A stretch of DNA of 64,000 nt, from positions 1,105,313 through 1,169,312 of the forward strand of contig CAZDOJ010000001.1 of assembly GCA_964507055.1 (NCBI GenBank). The letters run 5' to 3'. The notes beneath the pieces are model-generated. The model saw only the letters and a list, made by a program, of their open reading frames with translations, ran no database searches and was not told the origin of the DNA. Shown one piece after another: positions 2,787 through 44,906 of the stretch (position 1 is the stretch's first letter; each line of letters starts with the position of its first letter). This DNA comes from an uncultured Gammaproteobacteria bacterium. GTDB taxonomy: Bacteria; Patescibacteriota; Microgenomatia; Levybacterales; UBA12049. A program made the position numbers and the translations under genes.

Positions 2787-3644
2787 TTATGAAGATAACT
2801 TTACTTTGTTTTTATATAAAGTAATAAATCCTTCTTGCTCCATTTCTTTAATGATTCCGTCTATAAGTTCTTGGTCCTTATCTAAAAAATCTTCTTTTAC
2901 TAAAAGCCCTAGATCTTTTAATGGAATCTCTTTTTTCTCCAGCAGTTGCTTCACAATTCTTCCACGATAATATCTTCTCGAGCCTTTAAATGTAGATTGC
3001 TTAGGAACATCAATTTTTTCTTTCTTTAACATTAGACTACTATAATCCATAAGAGCTTGATTCCAATCATACGCCTTACCTTGTGGAACTAATGTTTCAG
3101 CAATCGCTGCAATTTCTTTATCGCTCACTTTATTTTCTTTTATATCCGTAGTGTCAGCTACATTAATTGTTTCCGGTCCTTTTAAGAGTTGTGTCAAAAT
3201 AACTTTCTTCACATTAATATCGACAACGGCGACTTGTTGATCAAAAGCAAAACACATAATCGCACGAGCAGTATATTGTCCAATTCCCGGCAATGCTAGT
3301 AACTCTTTTTCTGTTTGAGGAAAATTTCCTTGATAGTTTTCCGAAACAACTGTTGCTGTTTTTTTTAAGTTTAATGCACGGCGGTTATATCCAAGTCCTG
3401 ACCAATAGTGAAGGACTTCTGAAACAGGTGCTTTTGCCAGATCATGCACTGTTGGAAAAGCTGCAAACCATGCTTCGTATTTTGGAATGACTCTATTGAC
3501 CTGTGTTTGTTGAAGCATAATTTCACTAACCAAAATCCGATAAGGATCACGGGATTTTCTCCATGGTAAATCCCGTTGATGCACTGCATACCATGTGAGA
3601 ATTTTGTCTTGAAATGTTTTAATTTGAGGTTTAGAGATTTCCAA
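2787..3644 (-). CDS. HhH-GPD base-excision DNA glycosylase (MutY/Nth family, A/G-specific adenine glycosylase-like)
   Basis: 'RDLPWRKSRDPYRILVSEIMLQQTQVNRVIPKYEAWFAAFPT...LPGIGQYTARAIMCFAF' matches MutY N-terminal catalytic domain; C-terminal part divergent and lacks obvious 4Cys cluster. Confidence 0.65.
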   Translation of the reverse strand: MEISKPQIKTFQDKILTWYAVHQRDLPWRKSRDPYRILVSEIMLQQTQVNRVIPKYEAWFAAFPTVHDLAKAPVSEVLHYWSGLGYNRRALNLKKTATVVSENYQGNFPQTEKELLALPGIGQYTARAIMCFAFDQQVAVVDINVKKVILTQLLKGPETINVADTTDIKENKVSDKEIAAIAETLVPQGKAYDWNQALMDYSSLMLKKEKIDVPKQSTFKGSRRYYRGRIVKQLLEKKEIPLKDLGLLVKEDFLDKDQELIDGIIKEMEQEGFITLYKNKVKLSS

Positions 3645-3646
3645 TT

Positions 3647-4633
3647 TTATAACAGTCCCATTTTATCACGAACTTCTCGGACTGTTGCTTCTGCGAGGGA
3701 TTTTGCTTTTTCATTTCCTTCTTGAATGATTCTATCAACTTCATGTGGATTATCTTCAAAGTGTTTTCGTTTTTCTTGGAATGGTTGTAATTCTTTATAA
3801 ACTAATTCTGCTAATTCTTTTTTCATGTCACTGTAACGAATTCTTTTCTCTCGATAATCAATGACATACTTTACAAATACTTCTTTCTCAGCAAATAATT
3901 TGAAAATTGTAAACAAATTACCGACTCCACCATCGTTTGGGACAGCACCACCTTCTGTGCCACTGTCTGTTGGAATCTTTGCGATTTTACTTTTGATAGT
4001 TTCGAAATCATCAGTTAAATTAATATAACTTCCTTCAACAGATTTACTCATTTTTCCTTCTCCTAAAAGTGAAGGGATATATTCACCTGCTGTTTTAAAA
4101 CGCTGCGGTTCAGGAAAATCTGTACCATATTCCTGATTCATTTTACGAGCAATTTCTCGTGCAACTTCTATGTGCGGTTCCTGATCAATTCCGACAGGGA
4201 CGCTGTCTGCTTTATAGATCAAAATATCTGCTGCCATCAGAATTGGATAATTAAGAAGTGCCATAGTTGCACTATCTGGATGTTGTTTTACTTTATCCTT
4301 AAATGTTGGCAGATGCTGCATTCGAGCGATTGTCTGTACACTGGAGAAATAGAATGCTAATTCAGCATGAGGACTTTGTGCTTGCTGAAAAAGAATACTT
4401 TTTTCGGGATCAAGTCCAGCAGCTAGATAATCAATAATTATTTCGCGGCGATCTTTGCGTAACGCTTCAACGTCATATGGTGTAGTTAGCGTATGTAAAT
4501 CTGCAACCATGTAGAGCGTTTCATAATTTGGATCATCTTGTAACGCAAGCATACCTTTAATCGCACCTAAATAATTACCGAGATGGAGGCGACCCGTTGC
4601 ACGAATTCCTGATAATACACGTTTCTTATTCAT
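3647..4633 (-). CDS. trpS: tryptophan--tRNA ligase
   Basis: 'KRVLSGIRATGRLHLGNYLG' HIGH-like region and 'KMSKS' motif; ORF track start 4681, but the internal Met 'MNKKRVLSG' at 4633 matches typical TrpRS N-termini. Confidence 0.85.
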   Translation of the reverse strand: MNKKRVLSGIRATGRLHLGNYLGAIKGMLALQDDPNYETLYMVADLHTLTTPYDVEALRKDRREIIIDYLAAGLDPEKSILFQQAQSPHAELAFYFSSVQTIARMQHLPTFKDKVKQHPDSATMALLNYPILMAADILIYKADSVPVGIDQEPHIEVAREIARKMNQEYGTDFPEPQRFKTAGEYIPSLLGEGKMSKSVEGSYINLTDDFETIKSKIAKIPTDSGTEGGAVPNDGGVGNLFTIFKLFAEKEVFVKYVIDYREKRIRYSDMKKELAELVYKELQPFQEKRKHFEDNPHEVDRIIQEGNEKAKSLAEATVREVRDKMGLL

Positions 4634-12136: not shown

Positions 12137-12763
12137 TTAATTGAGTATTTTCAGAAATTTATTTTCCTGCTTTTCTCCCTTTTTTCTACCATGCGTCGGA
12201 TCTAACTTTCTCCAAACATAGAGTACTAATTCCGCAAGCCAATGTTTTGAATCATTAAGTTTTGGATGCGTTTTCTCTTCATTTAATGCTTGTTCATATG
12301 TCATTGGTAATACTTTCACATTAAATGCATTCTCATCAATTGGTACTCCTGGACCAGAATGAGTGACGCCAGCTGCTTTAACAACCTCTGAAATCTTGGG
12401 TTGATCAAGCTCAGGAGTTTTTTCAACAATATTCTCTACACTCTTTTCAACCTGTAACTCTGGAGTTGTAGGTTGAATTTCAACTTGCTGTATCTCAGCA
12501 GTATTTTGGACAGGTTTTGTTGATACTTCCTGCCTTGCAGGCTGTACCTCATCTTCACTATCCTCAACTGATGAACTCCCAGTCTGTACTGGACCCTGTT
12601 CTGGATGTACAGAAATTGTTTGTGGTGTAGGGACAGATTGTACCACAGGTTCGTTCGGCGACATAGTTCCTGCAGAAATCGTCGGTGCAGGAGCTTGCCC
12701 ACGACCGATAACAGATGCCTGAGCGTTGGGTGTACTTTGACCTTGTGGAGTACTTGAATCCAT
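12137..12763 (-). CDS. hypothetical Pro/Gln/Thr-rich protein
   Basis: 208 aa, low-complexity N-terminal two thirds, short conserved-looking C-terminus; same strand as surrounding operon. Confidence 0.3.
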   Translation of the reverse strand: MDSSTPQGQSTPNAQASVIGRGQAPAPTISAGTMSPNEPVVQSVPTPQTISVHPEQGPVQTGSSSVEDSEDEVQPARQEVSTKPVQNTAEIQQVEIQPTTPELQVEKSVENIVEKTPELDQPKISEVVKAAGVTHSGPGVPIDENAFNVKVLPMTYEQALNEEKTHPKLNDSKHWLAELVLYVWRKLDPTHGRKKGEKQENKFLKILN

Positions 12764-12942: not shown

Positions 12943-14331
12943 TTAATCACAACTAATTCCTGATTCTTCTGCAAATGCTTCTTTCGTCAGACCGCACCCT
13001 GGGCAACAATTTCCAACAGGCCCATCAGCTCGGAAAGAACATTTTGGACATGAGAACCATTCTTGTGCTTCAGGAGTCCCTTTCCCAAATTGTGAGACAC
13101 TATTAAGCATCATATCAACATTACTCCCACCCAATTTTATACCTGCTGATTTACCACAACCAACTTCTCTCTCTTCAGCCTGTTCATGACCATGACGTTC
13201 TGCAAGAGCTGCCATATATCGATATGCATCTGTATTAAGCTTTTGGCTTTTTGCATCAAAAACAATGTGCTCACCACTCTCTGGAACAAAATTTCGTTCA
13301 GGACTTAAAAGCATGATGTTATATGCACGTGCAATTGCTTCAGGATCAAAATCAGGTTTTGTTATTTGATCAAGCAAATAGAGCATTCCAGGAGTATATA
13401 TCCTTTGCAGTTTTTTCCATTCTTCTTCTGTTGTCGCTTCTACATCCATCGCAAAATTATCATTAAAAATAGTATCAATAGTTTGTCCTTCCTGAGCTGG
13501 TATAAGAAATGGATTCTCAAGATACCAAGCATCAAGTGGAATAGACGTTCCTGTTTGTTGCTCGCGTTGTTCTTTGCGTTCAAAAATTGTTGGATCAAGT
13601 CGCTGTGAAATTGAAGCATAATCATCAGTGTCAATTGAAGATGCAAAGCGTACGTAATTGATAACGCGTTCTCCGGTCTGCAGATTTTCATCCACTTGAT
13701 AACCGTCTATAAACTTATGCGAATAAGGAGAATCTTCAATCTGACTCTGTGGAGAAATTACCATAAAAGCTGTTCCAAGAGGTGTTTCTGGATCAGATAG
13801 TATACTTTGAATCTTTGCAAAACCCTTAACTTCAGCTTTCTCTCGTGCTAAATCTTTGGATCCTTGTTTTTCTCGATAGGCAACTCCTCGCTCGAGCATT
13901 GCTTCATATGGCTCTTCAGGAAAAGCATCATTTCTTATTTTTCCTTCTGCATCGAGGATTAATTGTAATCGACTCTCCTGTGTATTATGTCGTTCTCGAA
14001 GTGCAGTAGTAATTTGCTGTAATTCATTTTTTCGGAAACCTTCACGTTGTTCATCAGTTTCTAATCGTTCAAAATTCCACCTTGCAAGAACAGGATTATA
14101 GTTGTCTAATTCGCCTGAAAGGTTCTCTGCGAGACCAAGTGTGCTATTCCATTTCTGTTGCAGTTTTTTTACCTCATCTAATTCTCTATCTTTCTCTGTC
14201 AATACAGAATCCACTCGTGTTATTGCTGCATCCACCCGTGCAGAGATACCCTTTACAGGATTAAAAAATCGCTGGGAAGAAATGAAATCCTCTGGTCTCG
14301 TATGTTGATGTCCTCTTTGTCTTTCAAGCAT
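12943..14331 (-). CDS. hypothetical cytoplasmic protein with C-terminal zinc ribbon, cobalamin-riboswitch-associated
   Basis: 462 aa, no TM, C-terminal 'CPKCSF...NCCPGCG'; AUG directly preceded by SD-sequestering hairpin of a cobalamin-riboswitch-like leader. Confidence 0.5.
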   Translation of the reverse strand: MLERQRGHQHTRPEDFISSQRFFNPVKGISARVDAAITRVDSVLTEKDRELDEVKKLQQKWNSTLGLAENLSGELDNYNPVLARWNFERLETDEQREGFRKNELQQITTALRERHNTQESRLQLILDAEGKIRNDAFPEEPYEAMLERGVAYREKQGSKDLAREKAEVKGFAKIQSILSDPETPLGTAFMVISPQSQIEDSPYSHKFIDGYQVDENLQTGERVINYVRFASSIDTDDYASISQRLDPTIFERKEQREQQTGTSIPLDAWYLENPFLIPAQEGQTIDTIFNDNFAMDVEATTEEEWKKLQRIYTPGMLYLLDQITKPDFDPEAIARAYNIMLLSPERNFVPESGEHIVFDAKSQKLNTDAYRYMAALAERHGHEQAEEREVGCGKSAGIKLGGSNVDMMLNSVSQFGKGTPEAQEWFSCPKCSFRADGPVGNCCPGCGLTKEAFAEESGISCD

Positions 14332-14470
14332 AAAAAAACTCCTCGCTTCGGAGGAGTTGCATAAAAAAATATGCTTCTGCTCCGGAAGTCTTTAATAGGG
14401 CTCTGGCTTGATTTGAATCAAATCTTACAGTTGCGGCACAGCTTAGGATTTCCACCTAATTCACCCAAAT
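14332..14470 (-). promoter_or_regulatory. cobalamin riboswitch-like leader (aptamer plus SD-sequestering/terminator hairpin) upstream of 462-aa ORF
   Basis: mRNA sense contains GGUGGAAAUCC, GCUGUGCCGCAACUGUAAG and AAGCCAG (partial B12 box); 3' hairpin CUCCUCGCUUCGGAGGAG + U6 immediately before AUG, GAGGAG being the SD. Confidence 0.65.
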
Positions 14471-14473
14471 AAA

Positions 14474-15016
14474 CTATCTTTTAATCCACTTAATTTCTTT
14501 TTGTTTTTCTTGATGATTAATATATCGTGCGAGTGTAAAGAGAAGATCAGAAAGCCGATTGAGGTAAATAAGAATCGCTTGATCGACTTCTTCTTTTTCA
14601 GTTAAGGTGACAACCCTTCGCTCTGCACGACGAGCAAATGTTCGCGAAACATGCAGTAACGAACCTGATCTGCTTCCTCCAGGCAAAATAAAATTTTTCA
14701 GTTCTGGCAGCTTTTTTGTTAGTGAGTCGATCAGTGTCTCAAATTCTTTTGGACGATTTTCAAGACCAATTACAGGAATTGGATGCGGAGTCGCAAGCGT
14801 TGAACCAATTGCAAAGAGATCATGTTGGATTGTTTCGAGCTCTTTAGCAACACTCTTATATTTACTCTTTGGAAGGAATGCGAGGGTTTGACCGATAACG
14901 CTATTGAGCTCATCAACAGCAGCATAGGTTTCAACTCGCTCGTGAGATTTTGAGACTCGAGTACCATCAAAAAGTGAGGTTGTTCCTTTGTCACCTGTTC
15001 GTGTATATATTGGCAT
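14474..15016 (-). CDS. PduO-type ATP:cob(I)alamin adenosyltransferase
   Basis: 'MPIYTRTGDKGTTSLFDG...ETYAAVDELNSVIG' canonical PduO/MMAB N-terminus. Confidence 0.85.
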   Translation of the reverse strand: MPIYTRTGDKGTTSLFDGTRVSKSHERVETYAAVDELNSVIGQTLAFLPKSKYKSVAKELETIQHDLFAIGSTLATPHPIPVIGLENRPKEFETLIDSLTKKLPELKNFILPGGSRSGSLLHVSRTFARRAERRVVTLTEKEEVDQAILIYLNRLSDLLFTLARYINHQEKQKEIKWIKR

Positions 15017-15158
15017 AAAAAAATCCTTCCATGGCAGAAGGATTCATAAAAACTCCTGCTCGGGATAAAATGTTTTCTGGCTTTCCCCGACTAATCGGGA
15101 GTACAGTTGCGGCACAGCCACGGAATTTCACCGTGATTTCCTCTTAAATTGTCTAAAC
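15017..15158 (-). promoter_or_regulatory. cobalamin riboswitch-like leader upstream of PduO-type adenosyltransferase gene
   Basis: mRNA sense contains CGGUGAAAUUCCG, GCUGUGCCGCAACUGUA, AAGCCAG; 3' hairpin AAUCCUUCUGCCAUGGAAGGAUU + U7 ending 0 nt before AUG, sequestering SD-like GAAGGA. Confidence 0.65.
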
Positions 15159-15160
15159 TT

Positions 15161-17623
15161 CTAGCATTCAGAATAGCCACATGCGTAGCACTTCTTACAA
15201 CCTTCTTCGTAAGCAAAACTTCCTGATCCACATTCTGGGCAAATATCAAAGAGCGATGTTGATGAACTTGATGCTGCGACACCTGTTTGTGGAAGCGTCA
15301 ATTGGTTTGCAACAACTTCTTCTTCCCCAGTTACGATAGCATCAGCTTTGATTGGAACTGCGACACCATTGGTATGTCCATTTCCATTAGCAAGTGCTGC
15401 TTGTACTGGTGTGTACGATGCCTTGTCTTCAACTTTTCCATTAACTCGGAATTCACAATGACGAGCAAGTACCTTGGAAATTGCATCTGGAAGAGAACGA
15501 ACTCTGTTCTCTCCAAATCCACTTGAGCGGCTACCTCCTATGCCAGCAAGTTCTGACACAATCTCGCGGACCCGCTCCCGGGCAGGAACCGGACTGTGGA
15601 TACGTAACACAAAGGATACCATCCGGCCGAGCGCGTCCGCGAGGGCCATTAAATCAGAACCGCTTTTCCCGTGATTAATGAAGACTTCAAAGAGGTCGCC
15701 CTTTTCGTCCTGATTGATGGTGACATATAACTTCCCTGTTGGACTATCTGCTTTGTATGTAACGCCAGTTAACATCATTGGTCGTGGAACTCGTGGTGTT
15801 ACAGGAATAACTGGTTCTTGAGCGACTGGTACTTCGACTTTTGCTTCTTTCTTCTCTTCTCTCTGTAACACTCCGGTTCGTGAACCATCTCGGAAGTATG
15901 TAACTCCTTTAAGACCATTATCATATGCTGACATGTAAAGATTCTTTACATCTTCAACTGTGTGATGATTTGGAGCATTTACCGTCTTTGAAATTGATGA
16001 GTCAATATATTCCTGAGCAACAGTTTGAATCTTTACATGATCTTCAGGAGTCAAATCGTTTGCTCCGACAAAGTACTCTGGTCGTTCTTCATCAGGGTGA
16101 GAATCTTTCCATTCACCATAGAGTCCGTGATATACCATCTGTTTACCCAAACGACCGTTGTGAGAATATTCAAATTCATATACTGGCTCGACACCACTTG
16201 AAACTGCTGCGACAAGACTTGTTGTCCCGGTTGGAGCAATTGTCAAAAGTACTGCATTTCGAATTCCCTGCTTGTAGATCTTCTCACGAATATCTTTTGG
16301 TAATGCTTGGATATGATATCCCTTTTGATATTGGTCTCGCTCGTATTTTAAGAATGAACCTTTTTCTTTTGCAATATTTGCAGATGCTATATAAGCATTA
16401 TCACGAAGTGCTGCAAAAATTTTCTTTGAAATCTTTTCTGATTCTTCTGAGCCATACCGAACTTTCATTTTGATGAAGGTGTCAGCGATACCCATGATTC
16501 CCAAACCAGTGCGGCGGATATCTTTTGCTACTTTTTCATTTTCTTTAAAGAAGTAATAGGTATCGTCAATAACATTGTCTAGGAATCGCATTGCAACTTG
16601 CACATCTTTTCCAAAAGACTCGTAATCAAACCAGCCTGCTTTATCATTTCTCAAGTCATCATCTTTGACATATGCGGCCAAATTCATTGCTCCTAAGTTA
16701 CATACAGCCCAACCTCCAAGTGGTTGCTCACCGCAAGGGTTTGTTGCAAGTAATTTCTCAAAATACCATGTATTTGATCGTTTGTTGGAGCGGTCTAAGA
16801 AGTGGAGACCTGGTTCAGCTGATTTCCAAGCTGCTGTACAAATAAGATCCCACAGTTCTTTTGCTTGAACTGTCTTGTACACTTTTACTTTACCGCCATT
16901 TGCTTTCCAACTCCTTAAATCTCCATCCCAATCTCTATCATAATTTGGGTCACTAAGATCTGGATAGACAAGATCCCAAGGTTTATCTGCTTTTACAGCT
17001 TCCATAAAGTCATCTGAGACACAGACTGAAAGATTTGCTCCGTTGATCTTCGTCAAATCTTCTTTGACAGTGATAAATTCCTCAATATCTGGATGCCAAT
17101 CCCAAAGCATAAGCATAGTAGCTCCGCGTCGTGATCCTCCTTGTTGGACAATATCATGTGTTGCTACTGAGAAAAGGGTTGCCCAATTAATAGGTCCTGA
17201 TGAGGTTCCGTTTACTTTTTTGACGCGTGATCCACGAGGACGAAGTGATGAGAGATTTAATCCGACTCCACCAGCTCGGGATTGGATCTCGATAAGTTGA
17301 CCGAGTGATTCAAGAATCCCATGTCGTGAATCTTTAGGCGATGGTATAACGAAACAATTGAAGTATGTTACTTGATAACCTGTTCCTGCTCCTGAAAGGA
17401 TACGACCACCCGGAACAAATTTGAAATCCTCGAGGACTTTGTAGAATTCTCCTTCCCATTTCGCTTGCTGTGATTTCTTTTCTTGCTTTGCAATTCCTTT
17501 TGCAACGCGTCTCCACATTTCTTCAGGTGAGTGTTCAAGAAGTTCTCCTTCAACACCTTTCAATGCATATCTATCTAAAAATACTTTTTGTCTTACGCCT
17601 TCAAATTTCATAATGTTATTCAA
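15161..17623 (-). CDS. nrdJ: ribonucleoside-diphosphate/triphosphate reductase, class II (adenosylcobalamin-dependent)
   Basis: 820 aa; 'NPCGEQPLGGWAVCNLGAMNL' active-site region, 'TIAPTGTTSL', C-terminal CxxC..CxxC zinc ribbon; B12 context (PduO gene, riboswitches, nrdR). Confidence 0.75.
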   Translation of the reverse strand: MNNIMKFEGVRQKVFLDRYALKGVEGELLEHSPEEMWRRVAKGIAKQEKKSQQAKWEGEFYKVLEDFKFVPGGRILSGAGTGYQVTYFNCFVIPSPKDSRHGILESLGQLIEIQSRAGGVGLNLSSLRPRGSRVKKVNGTSSGPINWATLFSVATHDIVQQGGSRRGATMLMLWDWHPDIEEFITVKEDLTKINGANLSVCVSDDFMEAVKADKPWDLVYPDLSDPNYDRDWDGDLRSWKANGGKVKVYKTVQAKELWDLICTAAWKSAEPGLHFLDRSNKRSNTWYFEKLLATNPCGEQPLGGWAVCNLGAMNLAAYVKDDDLRNDKAGWFDYESFGKDVQVAMRFLDNVIDDTYYFFKENEKVAKDIRRTGLGIMGIADTFIKMKVRYGSEESEKISKKIFAALRDNAYIASANIAKEKGSFLKYERDQYQKGYHIQALPKDIREKIYKQGIRNAVLLTIAPTGTTSLVAAVSSGVEPVYEFEYSHNGRLGKQMVYHGLYGEWKDSHPDEERPEYFVGANDLTPEDHVKIQTVAQEYIDSSISKTVNAPNHHTVEDVKNLYMSAYDNGLKGVTYFRDGSRTGVLQREEKKEAKVEVPVAQEPVIPVTPRVPRPMMLTGVTYKADSPTGKLYVTINQDEKGDLFEVFINHGKSGSDLMALADALGRMVSFVLRIHSPVPARERVREIVSELAGIGGSRSSGFGENRVRSLPDAISKVLARHCEFRVNGKVEDKASYTPVQAALANGNGHTNGVAVPIKADAIVTGEEEVVANQLTLPQTGVAASSSSTSLFDICPECGSGSFAYEEGCKKCYACGYSEC

Positions 17624-18188
17624 TCGTGTTTATAGAATTATTGTTTTGCTTATACTGACAATTATCGTTTTGATAATAATTATTTTGTATATGATACTCT
17701 GTCTTAATTTCTTTATTGTTTGAGTTAATGCTTATACCAAAAAGTTGCAAAGTATAAGTTGCCCCCAAAACTAAGCCTAATGCACTTATTAGAACTTTTT
17801 TATTCTTAATACAAAAGTCTACTAATCTCTTGAAAAAGTTTGTATTCGTAGATGCTGTTTGGCCATGACTAACAGGATCTCCATTCTTATAATTATAATA
17901 CTCATCAGCATTTTTAAACCCAGTACTAAGATCAAAATATCTAAGCTTCTTTTCAAATTTCTGAAGCTGAAAACTTTCATATCCAGAATATACGTTTGAT
18001 TCAAATTTCTTATAAAACTTCGTAAACGATGCTTCTTCGAACGATGTTAAAGTTGCATCTGAAGCCACTACAATACCATCTACGGCAAATTGAGTTGTAG
18101 AAACCCATTTACTTGAACCTGCACCTAGAACAAGATTAATATCTGTGTTTAAAAGTTCGTCTTTAAATAATGGGTTTATTACTGGCAT
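17616..18188 (-). CDS. hypothetical protein, N/Y/Q-rich with C-terminal hydrophobic helix
   Basis: 190 aa; start overlaps nrdJ by 8 nt, stop-start overlap with next gene; no motif recognised. Confidence 0.35.
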   Translation of the reverse strand: MPVINPLFKDELLNTDINLVLGAGSSKWVSTTQFAVDGIVVASDATLTSFEEASFTKFYKKFESNVYSGYESFQLQKFEKKLRYFDLSTGFKNADEYYNYKNGDPVSHGQTASTNTNFFKRLVDFCIKNKKVLISALGLVLGATYTLQLFGISINSNNKEIKTEYHIQNNYYQNDNCQYKQNNNSINTIE

Positions 18189-18189
18189 A

Positions 18190-18597
18190 CTAATTTGCTA
18201 ACTTAATATTTTGATTTTTTTTCTGCTGAACATGGATCACCTTGATTTCAGTGGAGCCAACTTCAACTTTACCATCATTGATAACAAACTTGTAATCTCC
18301 TTCAGATTCAAAACCTAAGTTAACAAACTCAATCAATAGATTATTTCGACCATTTCCGCTTGTAACTGTGGTTATATCACTAGCATTTATTATTTTATTA
18401 TCATGCTCTAGCTTGATCGTTAAATTATAACTTTTATCCGGAGATCCTGATAATGTAGCAACTAGAAATGCTCTTGGAACACCGCCCGGAAATTGAGATA
18501 CCCTTATTTCATCAAAGATTCCATTAATGCTTAACTTATTCTCTCGTGAAAGAGATGCATATTCACATAAAGCTATAATTTGTGTTGTTAATTTCAT
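18190..18597 (-). CDS. hypothetical protein
   Basis: 135 aa; overlaps nrdR stop by 4 nt (coupled). Confidence 0.35.
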   Translation of the reverse strand: MKLTTQIIALCEYASLSRENKLSINGIFDEIRVSQFPGGVPRAFLVATLSGSPDKSYNLTIKLEHDNKIINASDITTVTSGNGRNNLLIEFVNLGFESEGDYKFVINDGKVEVGSTEIKVIHVQQKKNQNIKLAN

Positions 18598-19073
18598 AAT
18601 GTTGGTTTAGTAATTTTTCTTTTTGCTCCTGATAATTCTTTGACTTCTTTTTCAAAGTCTCCTGCTTCAACAAAGCGTTTGAATACACTCGCAAAACGAA
18701 TATACGCTACTTTATCTAACTGCTTTAATCGAGCTGCAACTATCTCCCCTATTAATTCACTTTTAACTTCAAGTGAGCCCATTGTTCGTAATTCTCGGCT
18801 CACTTCGTTAATGATTTTCTCAATCACACTTGCCGGAACTACGGTTTTCTCACATGATTTTAAAAGTCCAGTTTTTAGCTTCTCACGGTTAAATTGCTCT
18901 CTGCGTCCGTCCCGTTTGATTACAATCAGTTGTACATGTTCAACTCGTTCGTACGTCGTAAATCGCTTGCAACATGCCAGGCAAGCTCTTCTCCTACGAA
19001 TTGTGTCCATGTCCGAGCTATCGCGTGTCTCTACAACCTCTGAATCCTTGCTTCCACAGTACGGGCAGTGCAT
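18594..19073 (-). CDS. nrdR: transcriptional repressor NrdR
   Basis: 'MHCPYCGSKDSEVVETRDSSDMDTIRRRRACLACCKRFTTYERVE' zinc ribbon + ATP-cone. Confidence 0.9.
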   Translation of the reverse strand: MHCPYCGSKDSEVVETRDSSDMDTIRRRRACLACCKRFTTYERVEHVQLIVIKRDGRREQFNREKLKTGLLKSCEKTVVPASVIEKIINEVSRELRTMGSLEVKSELIGEIVAARLKQLDKVAYIRFASVFKRFVEAGDFEKEVKELSGAKRKITKPTL

Positions 19074-21620: not shown

Positions 21621-22517
21621 TCAGGATCTTTTTGTATACTTTTTCTTTCGGACTGCCAACACAAACCAAATTACACCGACAATTACCACCACTGCTTGCA
21701 CTCCAAGGATAATTGCACCGACAGTATTAGTCGCAAATGTATATCCTTCTGTGTTTTTAGCATTAGTCAGCATTGTATACGCGTAAACTATAAACCCATT
21801 TTTGTCTGTGGCTTTAACAATTGGAGTGACAATTGCAGGATCGGTTGTGTATGTATGGACAGGATTCTTTTCAGAACTCTTCCCTCCTTCACCAAAATCC
21901 CACATATACGAAACAGTATCTCCAGTTGGCTTATTTTTGGTTTCCACATTAAAAGCAATTGGAGCTTTCATGTTCACTTCCTGGGATTCATTCCGAAATG
22001 CTTTCTGATTTGCGGTAATAATAATTTCAGGAAGTACGTATGTACCGTCGGGAAAAACATTCAGCTGAACTATCTCAATTACTTGCGGTTTTGCAACAGT
22101 ATCATCATTAAAATCTGCATAAATCGTAACCACTTTGGATCCGATTTGCTTGTATGTATGTTTGACTTCTGTTCCTGTCGCGGTTGTGCCATCACCGAGC
22201 TCCCATTTGTATGTTATTTTATTAAGAACATCATCAGCATAAACTTGTCTGAGGACTGGGGTATCGATAAAAAATGTTATCTCCTTATTAACAGAGAATC
22301 GTTCTGTAGCAAGATCTTCAGGGACAATAAAGCTTGTAGGGACAACTGTTTCTTTACGTACTGGATTCATGTCGGGAAATGTACCATTAATTCGCAAAAA
22401 AGGGATTAGTCCCTCAGCATGGGCACCAACCTGCTGTACTGAAGCAAAGAAAAATAATAGAACAAGAAGAATCGCTTTTTGCATATATCTATAGTACCAA
22501 AAAGGCGGATATTTCAC
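21621..22517 (-). CDS. PKD-domain surface protein with C-terminal membrane anchor
   Basis: signal peptide; two PKD-like repeats 'WELGDGTTATGTEVKHTY' and 'WDFGEGGKSSEKNPVHTYT'; C-terminal TM + basic tail. Confidence 0.55.
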   Translation of the reverse strand: MKYPPFWYYRYMQKAILLVLLFFFASVQQVGAHAEGLIPFLRINGTFPDMNPVRKETVVPTSFIVPEDLATERFSVNKEITFFIDTPVLRQVYADDVLNKITYKWELGDGTTATGTEVKHTYKQIGSKVVTIYADFNDDTVAKPQVIEIVQLNVFPDGTYVLPEIIITANQKAFRNESQEVNMKAPIAFNVETKNKPTGDTVSYMWDFGEGGKSSEKNPVHTYTTDPAIVTPIVKATDKNGFIVYAYTMLTNAKNTEGYTFATNTVGAIILGVQAVVVIVGVIWFVLAVRKKKYTKRS

Positions 22518-22549
22518 CGCCTTTTCAATAATGCTTTTAGTAATAACTA

Positions 22550-40145: not shown

Positions 40146-40560
40146 GGGGATGAATCGATTCGACGGGAAAAGTTCTTTTAAAACTGCAAGCCGACGATGA
40201 CACATAGTCGCAAAACGAGGTCAAAAAACAAATGCTAAATCTAGCATTCAAGCCTTAAGAGCTGAAAAGGACCGCATTCTTGCGGAACTTAACGGCCTTT
40301 ACGGCGGCCAACAAGCTTACGCACTAGCTGCTTAAGCTTTAAAGCCTGTTCATATAAGTCTTCCCTCGCCGGGACTGTATGGGCATAAAAATAGGTGGGG
40401 AAAACCTTAGAGGAATGGCTCTACCTTTATTGTATTTAGAGCATATACTTTGTTATTCCGGTCAACAGGACACGGCAAAGTGAATAAAAATAGTTGACTA
40501 CGCTTGTAGACGTTTTAAGAAATTTTTTTCACACTCCGGTTCACTGCCGGACATCTCCAC
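40146..40560 (+). ncRNA. ssrA: tmRNA (ssrA)
   Basis: 5' 'GGGGATGAATCGATTCGACGGG' matches tmRNA tRNA-like 5' end; 3' T-arm TCCGG-TTCACTG-CCGGA and acceptor CATCTCC pairing with GGGGATG incl. G3:U wobble; internal ORF ends 'GCTTACGCACTAGCTGCTTAA' (..AYALAA*); immediately downstream of smpB. Confidence 0.8.
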
Positions 40561-40605
40561 AAAAAAACCTCACTCTTCAGTAGGGTTTTCTGTTACTATA
40601 AATAC

Positions 40606-42419: not shown

Positions 42420-42506
42420 CGGAGGGAACAGGATTCGAACCTGCGGTAGGTTTAACCCCACGACTCCTTAGCAAGGAGTTACCATAAACCACTCGGACAT
42501 CCCTCC
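42420..42506 (-). tRNA. tRNA-Ser (anticodon GCU)
   Basis: minus-strand sequence GGAGGGATGTCCGAGTGG...ACTCC-TTGCTAA-GGAGT..long variable arm..GCAGG-TTCGAAT-CCTGT-TCCCTCC-G; class II tRNA. Confidence 0.8.
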
Positions 42507-42528
42507 TCAGTTCAAATGTTATTTTTTG

Positions 42529-42615
42529 CGGAGGAGATGAGATTCGAACTCATGGACCCTTTGACAGGTCGGAGGTTTAGTAAACCTCTGCACTCGGCCA
42601 CTATGCGACTCCTCC
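42529..42615 (-). tRNA. tRNA-Ser-like class II tRNA with apparent anticodon ACU (A34)
   Basis: GGAGGAG-TC-GCAT..GAGGT-TTACTAA-ACCTC-long variable arm-ATGAG-TTCGAAT-CTCAT-CTCCTCC-G; body highly similar to neighbouring tRNA-Ser(UGA); anticodon loop reads T-T-A-C-T-A-A. Confidence 0.65.
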
Positions 42616-42636
42616 AGATAGGTATTATGTAAGATG

Positions 42637-42723
42637 CGGAGAGAGTGGGATTCGAACCCACGGAAGGCTTGCACCCTCAGATGTTTTCAAGACATCCGCA
42701 CTCGACCACTATGCGATCTCTCC
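42637..42723 (-). tRNA. tRNA-Ser (anticodon UGA)
   Basis: GGAGAGA..GATGT-CTTGAAA-ACATC..long variable arm..GTGGG-TTCGAAT-CCCAC-TCTCTCC-G. Confidence 0.8.
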
Positions 42724-42826
42724 ATAACCTCGTCCAAGTATTCTACCAAAAATTCTATCTAGAAGCTAATAAGAAAATATTTTAGCATTTCTTGACTTCC
42801 TTTTTCTAATCAGTTAGAGTGAAAAT

Positions 42827-43387
42827 ATGGCCACTGCCCCAGCGAAACCCACGGAACAAATTGAAAATATCGATGAGTTAATAGGTGACGAACATATTGT
42901 AAAAACATTCATGTCTTGGCACGCACCTGGTCGGCCATACAGAAAACGATCGAAAGAATATTACATAAATAGCCTCCTTATTACTATTGCCATCGAAATT
43001 ATTCTTTTTCTTTTCTCTCAGTATCTTCTTATGCTCGTCGTTTTTTCACTTGCGTTCTTAGCTTTTGCACTCGCTATTGTTCCACCACATAAATTCTATT
43101 ACAGCATAAGTACTGAGGGAATACGTATTGAAGACAATTACTTCATTTGGGATGAACTCTATGATTTCTATTTTATGAAGCGGCAAGGAGTAGATGTGCT
43201 CCATGTTCGAACGAAGGCATATTTCCCAGGAGAATTGACGATAGTGCTTGGAGATATTCCTGTGGAGCAAGTACGTAAAGTTTTACTCATGTTTCTTCCA
43301 TACCGTGAATACGTCGAACCAACATTTATGGAAAAAGCAGGAGATTGGCTGGAAAGAAATTTCCCATTGGAAAGAACTACGCAATAA
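42827..43387 (+). CDS. hypothetical membrane protein
   Basis: 186 aa, two central TM helices. Confidence 0.3.
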   Translation: MATAPAKPTEQIENIDELIGDEHIVKTFMSWHAPGRPYRKRSKEYYINSLLITIAIEIILFLFSQYLLMLVVFSLAFLAFALAIVPPHKFYYSISTEGIRIEDNYFIWDELYDFYFMKRQGVDVLHVRTKAYFPGELTIVLGDIPVEQVRKVLLMFLPYREYVEPTFMEKAGDWLERNFPLERTTQ

Positions 43388-43440
43388 ATTCATTATTAGT
43401 TGCCTCAAAAACCCGTATAAGGTAAAATACACGTTACTAT

Positions 43441-43514
43441 GCACCCGTAGCTTAGCTGGATAGAGCACAACATTGCGGATGTTGAGGTCGGAAGTTCGAA
43501 TCTTCTCGGGTGTA
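43441..43514 (+). tRNA. tRNA-Arg (anticodon GCG)
   Basis: 74 nt: GCACCCG-TA-GCTT-AGCTGGATA-GAGC-A-CAACA-TTGCGGA-TGTTG-AGGTC-GGAAG-TTCGAAT-CTTCT-CGGGTGT-A. Confidence 0.7.
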
Positions 43515-43574
43515 CTTAGGTCGAAAGGATCCCCTTTTCCATGGGATTCACCGTTATAATAACGGATATTCTTG

Positions 43575-43664
43575 GAGGGATCGCATAGTGGTCGAGTGCG
43601 GCGGTTTCGAAAACCGCTGTCCTGATTTTCTTCGGGACCGAGGGTTCGAATCCCTCTCCCTCCG
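43575..43664 (+). tRNA. tRNA-Ser (anticodon CGA)
   Basis: GGAGGGA..GCGGT-TTCGAAA-ACCGC..long variable arm..GAGGG-TTCGAAT-CCCTC-TCCCTCC-G. Confidence 0.8.
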
Positions 43665-43672
43665 CAAATAGC

Positions 43673-44707
43673 TTATTTCTTCTTACTCATCTTGCCAAAA
43701 AGTTGTAATTCCCAGATAAAGAGAAGCATGAGGGCGATTATTGCAATTACTGAGGCTTTCCAGATACCACGAGCAACTTTCTTCACCTTCATCTCTTCCA
43801 AGCGTTTTGACCATCTTGCTAATTTTGCTCGATAATCATTTTTTGTTTGCTCGTCCATGTCTGAAGTTTCTATATCAACAGCTCCTCTTTTTAATTGGGC
43901 TTGAGCATCATTTACAGTACTATCTGCCTCCTCAGTACTAATTTCTTCTTTATCTTTGGGATCCTCGTTCTCTTTTTCTAAAGGAAATCCACTTAATAAT
44001 TCTTCTTTTTGTTCAGCATTAAGATCAGACATTTCCTCGACTACAGCTTGGACTTCATCTCTGGATAAACCACTCAAAGCAGCTTTTGTTGCCTGCATTT
44101 CCTCAGCACTCAAGCGTTCTTTCCCGGCTATAATTTTTGCTGCTGCTGTCATTTTTCGAAGATTTTCCTTATCTTTCTCTGGAACTTCAACCGAGTTAAC
44201 TAATTTATCTACAGCCTGCTCTTCACTATTTTTCGATTCATCAACTTCTTCTTTAGATTGGGGTTGGTAATCAATTACCTCTTGAATCTTTCCATCACTG
44301 CTTTCATCTAAGCTATTTAACAACTCAGTAAAAGCTGTTCTTGCTTGATCATTTTGCTGAATTTGATGCGTTCTTTGTGTAACTTTTGCAATATCTTGTT
44401 TTTCTTCATCAGATAATTCTTCTAGATATGTAGCACTATACACCTCACCAATAGATGTTTTGAGTTTTTCTTTTGATTCATCGGTAAAATTCCCCTCTCC
44501 ATCCACGGGAGTACTTTTAACCTCCCACAGAAATTCTTTTACCTGCTCAGCAATATTTGCTTTGGCAAAAGCTTCTCTCTTTTCCTGATCTGGCACAGAA
44601 GCCTCATAGTGGGCTTGTTTTTCCTGTTCTCGTGCCTGTTCTTGGTTATCTCCTGACTCCATATCTTTCCTTTCTCCTATCCTCCAATATTTAGCCTGAA
44701 TTGTCAA
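43673..44707 (-). CDS. hypothetical acidic coiled-coil protein with C-terminal membrane anchor
   Basis: 344 aa, E/K/D/Q-rich, predicted helical; C-terminal TM 'VIAIIALMLLFIWELQLF'. Confidence 0.35.
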   Translation of the reverse strand: MTIQAKYWRIGERKDMESGDNQEQAREQEKQAHYEASVPDQEKREAFAKANIAEQVKEFLWEVKSTPVDGEGNFTDESKEKLKTSIGEVYSATYLEELSDEEKQDIAKVTQRTHQIQQNDQARTAFTELLNSLDESSDGKIQEVIDYQPQSKEEVDESKNSEEQAVDKLVNSVEVPEKDKENLRKMTAAAKIIAGKERLSAEEMQATKAALSGLSRDEVQAVVEEMSDLNAEQKEELLSGFPLEKENEDPKDKEEISTEEADSTVNDAQAQLKRGAVDIETSDMDEQTKNDYRAKLARWSKRLEEMKVKKVARGIWKASVIAIIALMLLFIWELQLFGKMSKKK

Positions 44708-44822
44708 GCTAGAATCCTATCAAACTTGGATACCTATAAAGAATAGGTTATAATTACAAAATCATTGTAATAGAACTCTGCCTTGTACACTTGATATTTT
44801 CCTTATAAAAAAATTACGAATT

Positions 44823-44906
44823 GGAGGAGTCGGATAGCGGTCTATTCCACACGCTTGGAAAGCGTGCGAGCGTAAGCTCACGCGGGTTCGAATCCCGCCT
44901 CCTCCG
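44823..44906 (+). tRNA. tRNA-Ser (anticodon GGA)
   Basis: GGAGGAG..CACGC-TTGGAAA-GCGTG..long variable arm..GCGGG-TTCGAAT-CCCGC-CTCCTCC-G. Confidence 0.75.

Follow-up and report, generated by a model that had tools for sequence, protein, structure and literature searches.

A putative class II cobalamin riboswitch between the genes for a B12-dependent ribonucleotide reductase and a PduO-type adenosyltransferase in a Levybacteria-type bacterium

Cobalamin riboswitches of all classes share a kissing loop between L5 and L13 (PMC7367189). Within class II, Cbl-IIa members have a bulged J1/3 T-loop and bind HOCbl or MeCbl; in Cbl-IIb members, which bind AdoCbl, J1/3 is paired or mismatched and P6 bears a short hairpin (PMC7367189). 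The selectivity of class II members is not readable from sequence and spans the whole range from AdoCbl selective to MeCbl selective, with J1/3 as the key determinant (PMC6158498). The closest described relatives of the element reported here are the Rfam family RF01689 (AdoCbl-II, formerly AdoCbl-variant) and env8 Cbl-IIa (PDB 4FRN). The spacer between nrdJ and pduO in a Levybacteria-type bacterium of the candidate phyla radiation (CPR) carries an aptamer of this class, and we put at about 80% the probability that it is a functional riboswitch that turns pduO off by means of a kissing loop, an antiterminator, and a terminator.

The analyzed window is the whole stretch of DNA under study, 64,000 nucleotides long, and all genes of the nrdJ-pduO region lie on its minus strand. 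They are arranged in the order nrdR, a DUF6941 gene, an ORF of 190 aa, nrdJ, a spacer, pduO, a second spacer, the orphan genes Y and Z, and a gene for a VirD4-like ATPase. nrdJ (15161-17623) encodes a class II, AdoCbl-dependent ribonucleotide reductase (Pfam Ribonuc_red_lgC/lgN/TSCPD; NCBIfam TIGR02504, 578 bits against a cutoff of 400) and ends in a UAG stop codon at 15163-15161. pduO (14474-15016) encodes a PduO-type ATP:cob(I)alamin adenosyltransferase (PF01923, 201.6 bits; TIGR00636, 193 bits). These matches confirm the two flanking genes as named in an earlier, sequence-only reading of the window, and the strings that it had quoted from the nrdJ-pduO spacer (15017-15160, 144 nt) were all found on the minus strand where it had placed them. 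The spacer 3' of pduO, between pduO and Y, is 142 nt long. nrdR (18594-19073), the DUF6941 gene, and the 190-aa ORF lie immediately 5' of nrdJ (17616-19073) with abutting or overlapping ends, and the nrdJ ORF as listed has a TTG start and an 8-nt overlap with the upstream ORF, which suggests a single operon from nrdR to nrdJ. Elsewhere in the window, a tmRNA (40146-40562, plus strand, 102.8 bits) contains a large insertion when compared with the Rfam consensus and is adjoined by a cluster of six tRNAs (42420-44906), five of which have long variable arms.

An Rfam search of the whole window at gathering thresholds reported zero cobalamin elements and missed both spacer copies. A focused Rfam search aligned the nrdJ-pduO spacer to the full RF01689 AdoCbl-II model at 15070-15160 with an E value of 3.2e-5 and a score of 31.5 bits, under the gathering threshold of 36.5, because this copy has an insertion in P6 and a weak P1. 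The Rfam search, which the sequence-only reading had proposed as a check, thus returned a full-model match that stays below the formal cutoff. We compiled 80 loci that encode proteins related to PduO; most of them, from Levy-, Gottesman-, and Woesebacteria alike, have nrdJ 5' of pduO. The nearest locus, L001, shares 92% identity in PduO and 95% in NrdJ with the window. The window locus is also present in the metagenome runs SRR14271340, SRR14271361, and SRR14271332. L001 (OZ246394.1) and many CAZ*/CAY* records bear the title "uncultured Gammaproteobacteria bacterium" yet contain Microgenomates-type nrdJ-pduO loci, and the titles look mislabeled. Among the 17 loci scanned with Rfam, AdoCbl-II elements over the gathering threshold occur at two positions, directly after nrdJ and directly after pduO. 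Within clan CL00101, the orthologous elements reach 39 to 54 bits, over the threshold that the window copy fails to reach; the post-nrdJ orthologues include those of L014 (53.8 bits), L001 (46.9), L005 (45.2), L015 (44.6), and L018 (43.9), among others.

A covariance model, R1, was built from the short-P6 elements of 28 relatives, with a structure-blind MAFFT alignment and with the window excluded. This relatives-only model gave the spacer element a full-length alignment of 58.2 bits (E ~1e-16), in which only P1 contained flagged nonstandard pairs. A search of the window and the 80 loci (81 sources) with R1 retrieved 89 elements, every one of them (89/89) on the coding strand. A third match in the window, at 22467-22537, extends over an ORF start and lacks P5 and P6; with a score of 14.5 bits (E = 0.056), it was discarded as noise. 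Plain minimum free energy (MFE) folding did not recover the aptamer in either leader, with z scores against shuffled sequences of -0.02 for the nrdJ-pduO leader and -0.54 for the second copy, and is uninformative for such an RNA.

The aptamer (15063-15151) consists of a P1/P3, P4, P5, and P6 core and has no peripheral P7-P11 domain. Across the family, aptamers are 72 to 89 nt long and lack a P2 arm as well as P7-P11, with a P6 that is a loop only or, in the window, a 17-nt hairpin, all of which places them in class II. In the MAFFT alignment of the 28 relatives, 83.8% of the cells in P1/P3-P4-P5-P6 are paired, versus 34 to 43% in slid controls, and the covariation score is 0.52, versus 0.09 to 0.15; none of 500 shuffles reached the observed values. 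Changes on both sides are present in 15 of the 21 aptamer pairs among these relatives, so that covariation supports the core helices, as would be expected of a member of CL00101. The 5' strand of P1/P3, UUUAAGAG (15141-15148), pairs with CAUUUUA at 15066-15072, as read from the sequence. The pair G15141:C15072 is invariant. For the rest of the window helix there are two options, 6 bp around a bulged A15071 or five of seven pairs without a bulge, and neither includes a J1/3 T-loop bulge. The relatives have an uninterrupted P1/P3 helix that reaches up to 10 bp, and 9 of these 10 pairs change on both sides. P4 (CACGG/CCGUG, 15119-15135), with the loop L4 UGAAAUU, has 96.4% of its cells paired and compensatory changes in four of its five pairs in the relatives; the quoted string CGGUGAAAUUCCG (15134-15120) corresponds to P4/L4. 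The next string, GCUGUGCCGCAACUGUA (15118-15102), covers J4/5, P5/L5, and the start of P6. P5/L5 (UG-UGCCG-CA, 15108-15116) provides the kissing-loop receptor in L5; both P5 pairs covary and are 100% paired, and the first is U:A in 19, A:U in 8, and G:C in 1 of the 28 relatives. P6 (CUG/CAG, 15077-15106) ends within AAGCCAG (15083-15077) and is directly followed by J6/3, AAAA (15073-15076). Its loop contains a lineage-specific insertion of 24 nt, of which the covariance-model alignment shows 22 nt as an insert, including the 17-nt hairpin CUCCCGAUUAGUCGGGG (15085-15101), and this insert is absent in L001 and larger in L008.

The aptamer is joined to its expression platform by the P13 hairpin, UCC-CGAGCA-GGA (15054-15065, with L13 at 15057-15062), which follows P1 with a linker of zero nucleotides in the window. 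L13 is complementary to L5 through GCA:UGC and CG:CG, which leaves its middle A bulged; this bulged position is a C in L001 and three other relatives. The motif YCC-CGAGCA-GGR or CUUC-CGAGCA-GAAG is kept 3' of nearly all 89 elements at a variable distance, the post-nrdJ type being followed by (U)CC-CGAGCA-GG(A) and the post-pduO type by CUUC-CGAGCA-GAAG. The P13 stem covaries (CC/GG, UC/GA, and UU/AA). In the kissing loop, the pair between L5 position 39 and the last L13 nucleotide swaps from U:A to A:U in L010, L021, L035, L037, and L038, which represent at least three lineages, and six U39 relatives with a two-hairpin insertion within L13 still end L13 in A. Among 74 L5-plus-P13 constructs (35 distinct), which were selected to have a pairable stem, pairing reaches 96.6% in the kissing loop and 100% in P5, versus 31 to 52% in slid controls, and the position-39 pair is U:A in 25 and A:U in 4. 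Only one of the five kissing-loop pairs varies, and the covariation evidence for this contact therefore comes from that pair alone. The L5-L13 contact that connects aptamer and platform throughout CL00101 is thus present here, on a P13 stem that alone is worth only -1.6 kcal/mol. L13 is split by a two-hairpin insertion of ~35 to 60 nt in L010 (2787-2870), L020, L031, L035, L037, L007, L033, L034, and L027; the insertion is placed between CGAGC and the final loop nucleotide, the kissing-loop covariation is preserved, and the second hairpin of the insertion recurs, for example, as CAGGCGCAGACUUGUGCUUGG.

Downstream of P13 lies a terminator-like, Shine-Dalgarno (SD)-sequestering hairpin, GAAUCCUUC-UGCCAUG-GAAGGAUUU (15045-15021; 10 bp, -10.6 kcal/mol), followed by a U7 run (15023-15017) directly 5' of the pduO AUG (15016), as the sequence-only reading had described and a terminator scan also reports. 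The 3' arm of the hairpin contains the SD-like sequence GAAGGA (15029-15024), which had been called the only one; this holds at a working distance from the pduO AUG, but a stronger SD-like sequence, AGGAG, is present inside P13 (15057-15053). Five nucleotides after AGGAG, an AUG at 15047 opens an 18-codon ORF that spans the terminator in a reading frame other than that of pduO. This upstream ORF was rejected as a conserved feature: neither L001, the closest relative, nor L015 has the AUG, and in L002 the AUG shares the pduO frame. We therefore treat it as incidental; it is probably left over from designs whose actual SD is the GGAG of P13. CUUCUGC (15034-15040), in the terminator 5' arm, can alternatively pair with GCAGGAG (15053-15059), the 3' half of P13, in an antiterminator or anti-sequester helix of -8.2 kcal/mol, which is the MFE structure of the nascent transcript. 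For the whole platform, the terminator state has -13.3 kcal/mol and the antiterminator state has -11.6 kcal/mol. Folding, also proposed earlier as a check, misses the aptamer in its plain form and finds the alternative pairings in the platform.

The same design recurs in the family. A hairpin with a run of at least five U residues is present in 75/89 elements, an ATG 0 to 3 nt from the U-run in 52/89, and an SD-like 3' arm in 58/89, and the idea of a hairpin that serves both as terminator and as SD sequester thus fits most of the family. The terminator 5' arm has a segment complementary to P13/L13 in 64 of 88 members, compared with ~13% of random windows, and the CYUYUGY register seen in the window occurs in 8 members, against a background of 0.9%. 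This specific-motif test replaced a statistic based on the longest complementary run, which discriminated poorly (4.9 versus 4.25 in shuffles). In relatives, a UCCCGAG:CUCGGGA antiterminator is directly visible in the unliganded MFE folds.

These pairings suggest how the switch may operate. The aptamer would bind cobalamin, most plausibly AdoCbl, which PduO makes and NrdJ uses as its cofactor, and binding would stabilize the kissing contact between L5 (UGCCG) and L13 (CGAGCA) on the weak 3-bp P13. With P13 locked and its 3' half engaged, GCAGGAG would be unavailable to CUUCUGC, and therefore the downstream 10-bp hairpin with U7 would form, stop read-through from nrdJ, and hide GAAGGA in its 3' arm, so that pduO is off. 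When the ligand is absent, P13 would melt and the GCAGGAG:CUUCUGC antiterminator would form, so that pduO is read, its SD is free, and the gene is on. Most likely, then, pduO is shut off when the B12 cofactor is plentiful.

Several other explanations have to be weighed against this reading. The hairpin and U7 could be a plain intrinsic terminator of nrdJ beside a decaying relic of an aptamer that no longer binds a ligand, which would be in keeping with the subthreshold Rfam score and the empty whole-window scan, with an A>U change that weakens P1 relative to L001, and with the 24-nt insertion in P6. This is very improbable, since the element aligns to R1 over its full length with odd pairs confined to P1, the sister genomes L002, L008, and L012 retain the identical P1 variant, P6 insertions of various sizes are also present in high-scoring relatives, and P13, the L13 loop, and the complementarity of the antiterminator are all kept. 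What had been proposed as a cobalamin riboswitch-like leader is borne out by the orthologues over the gathering threshold, by the R1 score, and by the covarying helices, and the hairpin, far from being a plain intrinsic terminator next to a sequence without aptamer covariation, is linked to the aptamer by the conserved P13 kissing-loop hairpin and the antiterminator. It is also unlikely that control is purely translational, through SD sequestration with the U-run as a mere spacer between SD and AUG, or conversely purely transcriptional. An env8-like design that lacks a terminator and has its AUG just 3' of the P13 GGAG does exist in a minority of relatives of the Gottesman- and Woesebacteria type (L048, L058, L060, L064, L066, and L079), but the window hairpin, with 10 bp and U7, is a canonical intrinsic terminator. 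Where the transcript begins is a related question. The first base of the aptamer lies 9 nt 3' of the nrdJ stop codon, and a consensus promoter scan of the minus strand from 15160 to ~16340 gave no promoter-like site, which makes read-through from nrdJ the simplest reading, and the switch is probably intercistronic. nrdJ would then be made with or without ligand, pduO and, via the second switch, Y and Z would be made only under cofactor scarcity, and the riboswitch terminator would double as a conditional 3' end of the nrdJ message. The leader could instead be an ordinary 5' leader transcribed from a promoter located inside nrdJ, at its 3' end. Some relatives have the switch 90 to 530 nt (L015) or kilobases away from nrdJ, and in L021, L034, and L040 no nrdJ lies upstream, which indicates that the unit can work on its own; in the window, a poor match to a promoter (TTGTAA-N19-TATTCT, ~15200-15170) can be read from the sequence. 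Given the scan result and the 9-nt gap, to which must be added that no other terminator follows nrdJ, a separate promoter is nevertheless somewhat unlikely.

The architecture of the aptamer gives a hint of which form of cobalamin may be sensed. The bulged J1/3 T-loop that contacts J6/3 in Cbl-IIa is missing from this family, in which P1-P3 forms the single helix described above, and the window has only a single bulge or mismatch at the P1-P3 junction. Such a mismatched or bulged junction together with the P6 hairpin (15085-15101) resembles Cbl-IIb, a likeness of architecture only. AdoCbl is therefore moderately favored as the predicted ligand, and feedback of AdoCbl on its own synthase is a sensible logic that also favors it. 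A switch that senses a nonadenosylated cobalamin (hydroxo- or methylcobalamin, as in the Cbl-IIa of env8) or is promiscuous would be compatible with the best Rfam family, RF01689, a class II model, and with the documented range of class II selectivity (PMC6158498), including the binding of HOCbl and MeCbl by Cbl-IIa (PMC7367189). We regard it as rather unlikely, because the family lacks the T-loop that defines Cbl-IIa and its P1-P3 junction and short P6 hairpin match those of the AdoCbl-binding Cbl-IIb (PMC7367189), and because shutting down an adenosyltransferase as its substrate builds up would presumably be counterproductive.

The second riboswitch copy (14332-14475), in the spacer behind pduO, has its aptamer at 14389-14475 and scores 52.0 bits with R1 and 28.1 bits with RF00174, whose gathering threshold is 31.5. 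It is of a different type, here called type B, with a P13 of CUUC-CGGAGCA-GAAG (14374-14388) and a terminator at 14337-14358 that is matched by the terminator scan. Both copies contain an identical core of 17 nt, and they also agree in the P13 motif and in the hairpin/U7/AUG design, so that the shared core and hairpin logic noted in the sequence-only reading stand. The post-nrdJ type A has GGAAAUC and a J6/3 of AAAA, and the post-pduO type B has GGGUGAA and a J6/3 of AUCC or AGCC. Judged by their sequences, the copies are not recent duplicates but two subtypes, each of which is conserved separately in relatives at a position of its own.

Under the type B switch lie two orphan genes, Y (12943-14331, 462 aa) and Z (12137-12763, 208 aa, with a low-complexity N terminus), neither of which matched Pfam or NCBIfam. 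Twenty homologs of Y are detectable, all of them hypothetical, and an invariant C-terminal cysteine cluster, CxxC...CxxC, is found in Y. An AF2 model of Y (pLDDT 75) had no significant match in the PDB, with a best E value of 0.16. As their position behind a B12 switch is conserved (23 copies have the order pduO > switch > Y), Y and Z are candidates for a B12-related function. A broader and tentative proposal, which we consider more doubtful than likely, is that the nrdJ operon is split by two serial riboswitches, with nrdJ independent of the ligand, pduO and then Y and Z released stepwise as the cofactor falls, subtypes that differ in threshold or selectivity, and Y and Z, restricted to CPR, acting as new factors of B12 salvage or trafficking. 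Under this proposal, the ligand-bound first switch would supply the 3' end of the nrdJ mRNA.

The neighborhoods of the 89 elements fall into a small number of arrangements. The order nrdJ > switch > pduO, as in the window, was found for 14 elements, plus 5 with other upstream genes (19 in total), and the order nrdJ > switch > X1-X2-pduO, in which X1 is DUF4430 and X2 is DUF6580, was found for 10, plus 3 (13 in total). Behind pduO, the switch is followed by Y in 23 of the 89, by an X2 match in 2, and by no recognized gene in 23; a further 4 elements lie between nrdJ and no recognized gene, and 5 have no recognized neighbor on either side. The family is thus associated in sense orientation with B12-related genes, as would be expected within CL00101, with pduO, DUF4430/DUF6580, or Y/Z downstream and nrdJ or pduO upstream. 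The DUF4430 protein (~125 aa, with an N-terminal hydrophobic segment) and the DUF6580 membrane protein (~178 aa) are encoded between the post-nrdJ switch and pduO in L003, L014, L018, L031, and others, at ~3000-4000. DUF4430 is a domain found at the C terminus of transcobalamin-type B12 binders (PMC4350170). DUF6580 shows weak similarity to ECF S-components, and the two proteins are probably a B12 uptake pair. Neither is encoded within the 64-kb window. The switch > DUF4430-DUF6580-pduO order would be the common form, a familiar regulon in which B12 represses uptake plus adenosylation, and the window and L001 have a stripped-down form with the switch abutting pduO. Among 13 non-CPR pduO loci, 12 had no Rfam match at gathering level across ~8.5 kb of locus, and the 13th, from a Bacillaceae member (L078), has a classical Cobalamin riboswitch of 110 bits in the order riboswitch > btuC > btuD-cbiZ > pduO. 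The direct gating of an adenosyltransferase by a riboswitch, described earlier as uncommon, is so outside this lineage but recurs within Microgenomates, with 19 cases.

Literature searches retrieved no papers on cobalamin riboswitches in Patescibacteria/CPR or on DUF6580. In Levybacteria-type CPR bacteria, a B12-dependent ribonucleotide reductase is encoded beside a B12 adenosyltransferase, and the presence of the riboswitches points to regulated uptake and activation of B12. The case also illustrates an annotation gap, in that compact, lineage-specific riboswitch variants fall under Rfam thresholds, as both window copies do. The switches in turn draw attention to a few uncharacterized genes of these unculturable organisms, DUF4430, DUF6580, Y, and Z, which are candidates for a role in taking up or trafficking B12. 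The main value of the element lies in this context of B12 salvage in CPR and in the orphan genes that are flagged by the switches.

Compared with known systems, the spacer element is real but of an ordinary kind and does not represent a new regulatory principle. With RF01689 and env8 it shares the four-way P3-P6 core, the GGUGNAANUCC P4/L4, the absence of the P7-P11 domain, the L5-L13 kissing loop, and a regulatory P13 directly after P1, and some of its relatives have the SD within P13, as in env8. It differs from them in the lack of the bulged J1/3 T-loop, in its J6/3 of AAAA, and in a score below the gathering threshold that reflects the P6 insertion and the weak P1, and its platform adds an antiterminator/terminator stage beyond the occlusion of the SD by P13 that is used by env8. 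The paired or mismatched P1-P3 junction, the short P6 hairpin of the window copy, and the predicted ligand, AdoCbl, are shared with Cbl-IIb (PMC7367189), although many relatives of the window element have no P6 hairpin and the likeness is one of architecture only. Classical RF00174 riboswitches are ~190 to 220 nt long with a peripheral domain, whereas members of the window family have ~72 to 90 nt, and they stand at the 5' end of an operon, whereas the window switch lies directly behind the gene for a B12-dependent enzyme. In contrast to the classical arrangement in L078, there are no transporter genes between the switch and pduO in the window. The regulon logic, in which B12 represses genes for uptake and adenosylation, is shared with the classical systems, and the CPR order switch > DUF4430 > DUF6580 > pduO is their direct analogue.
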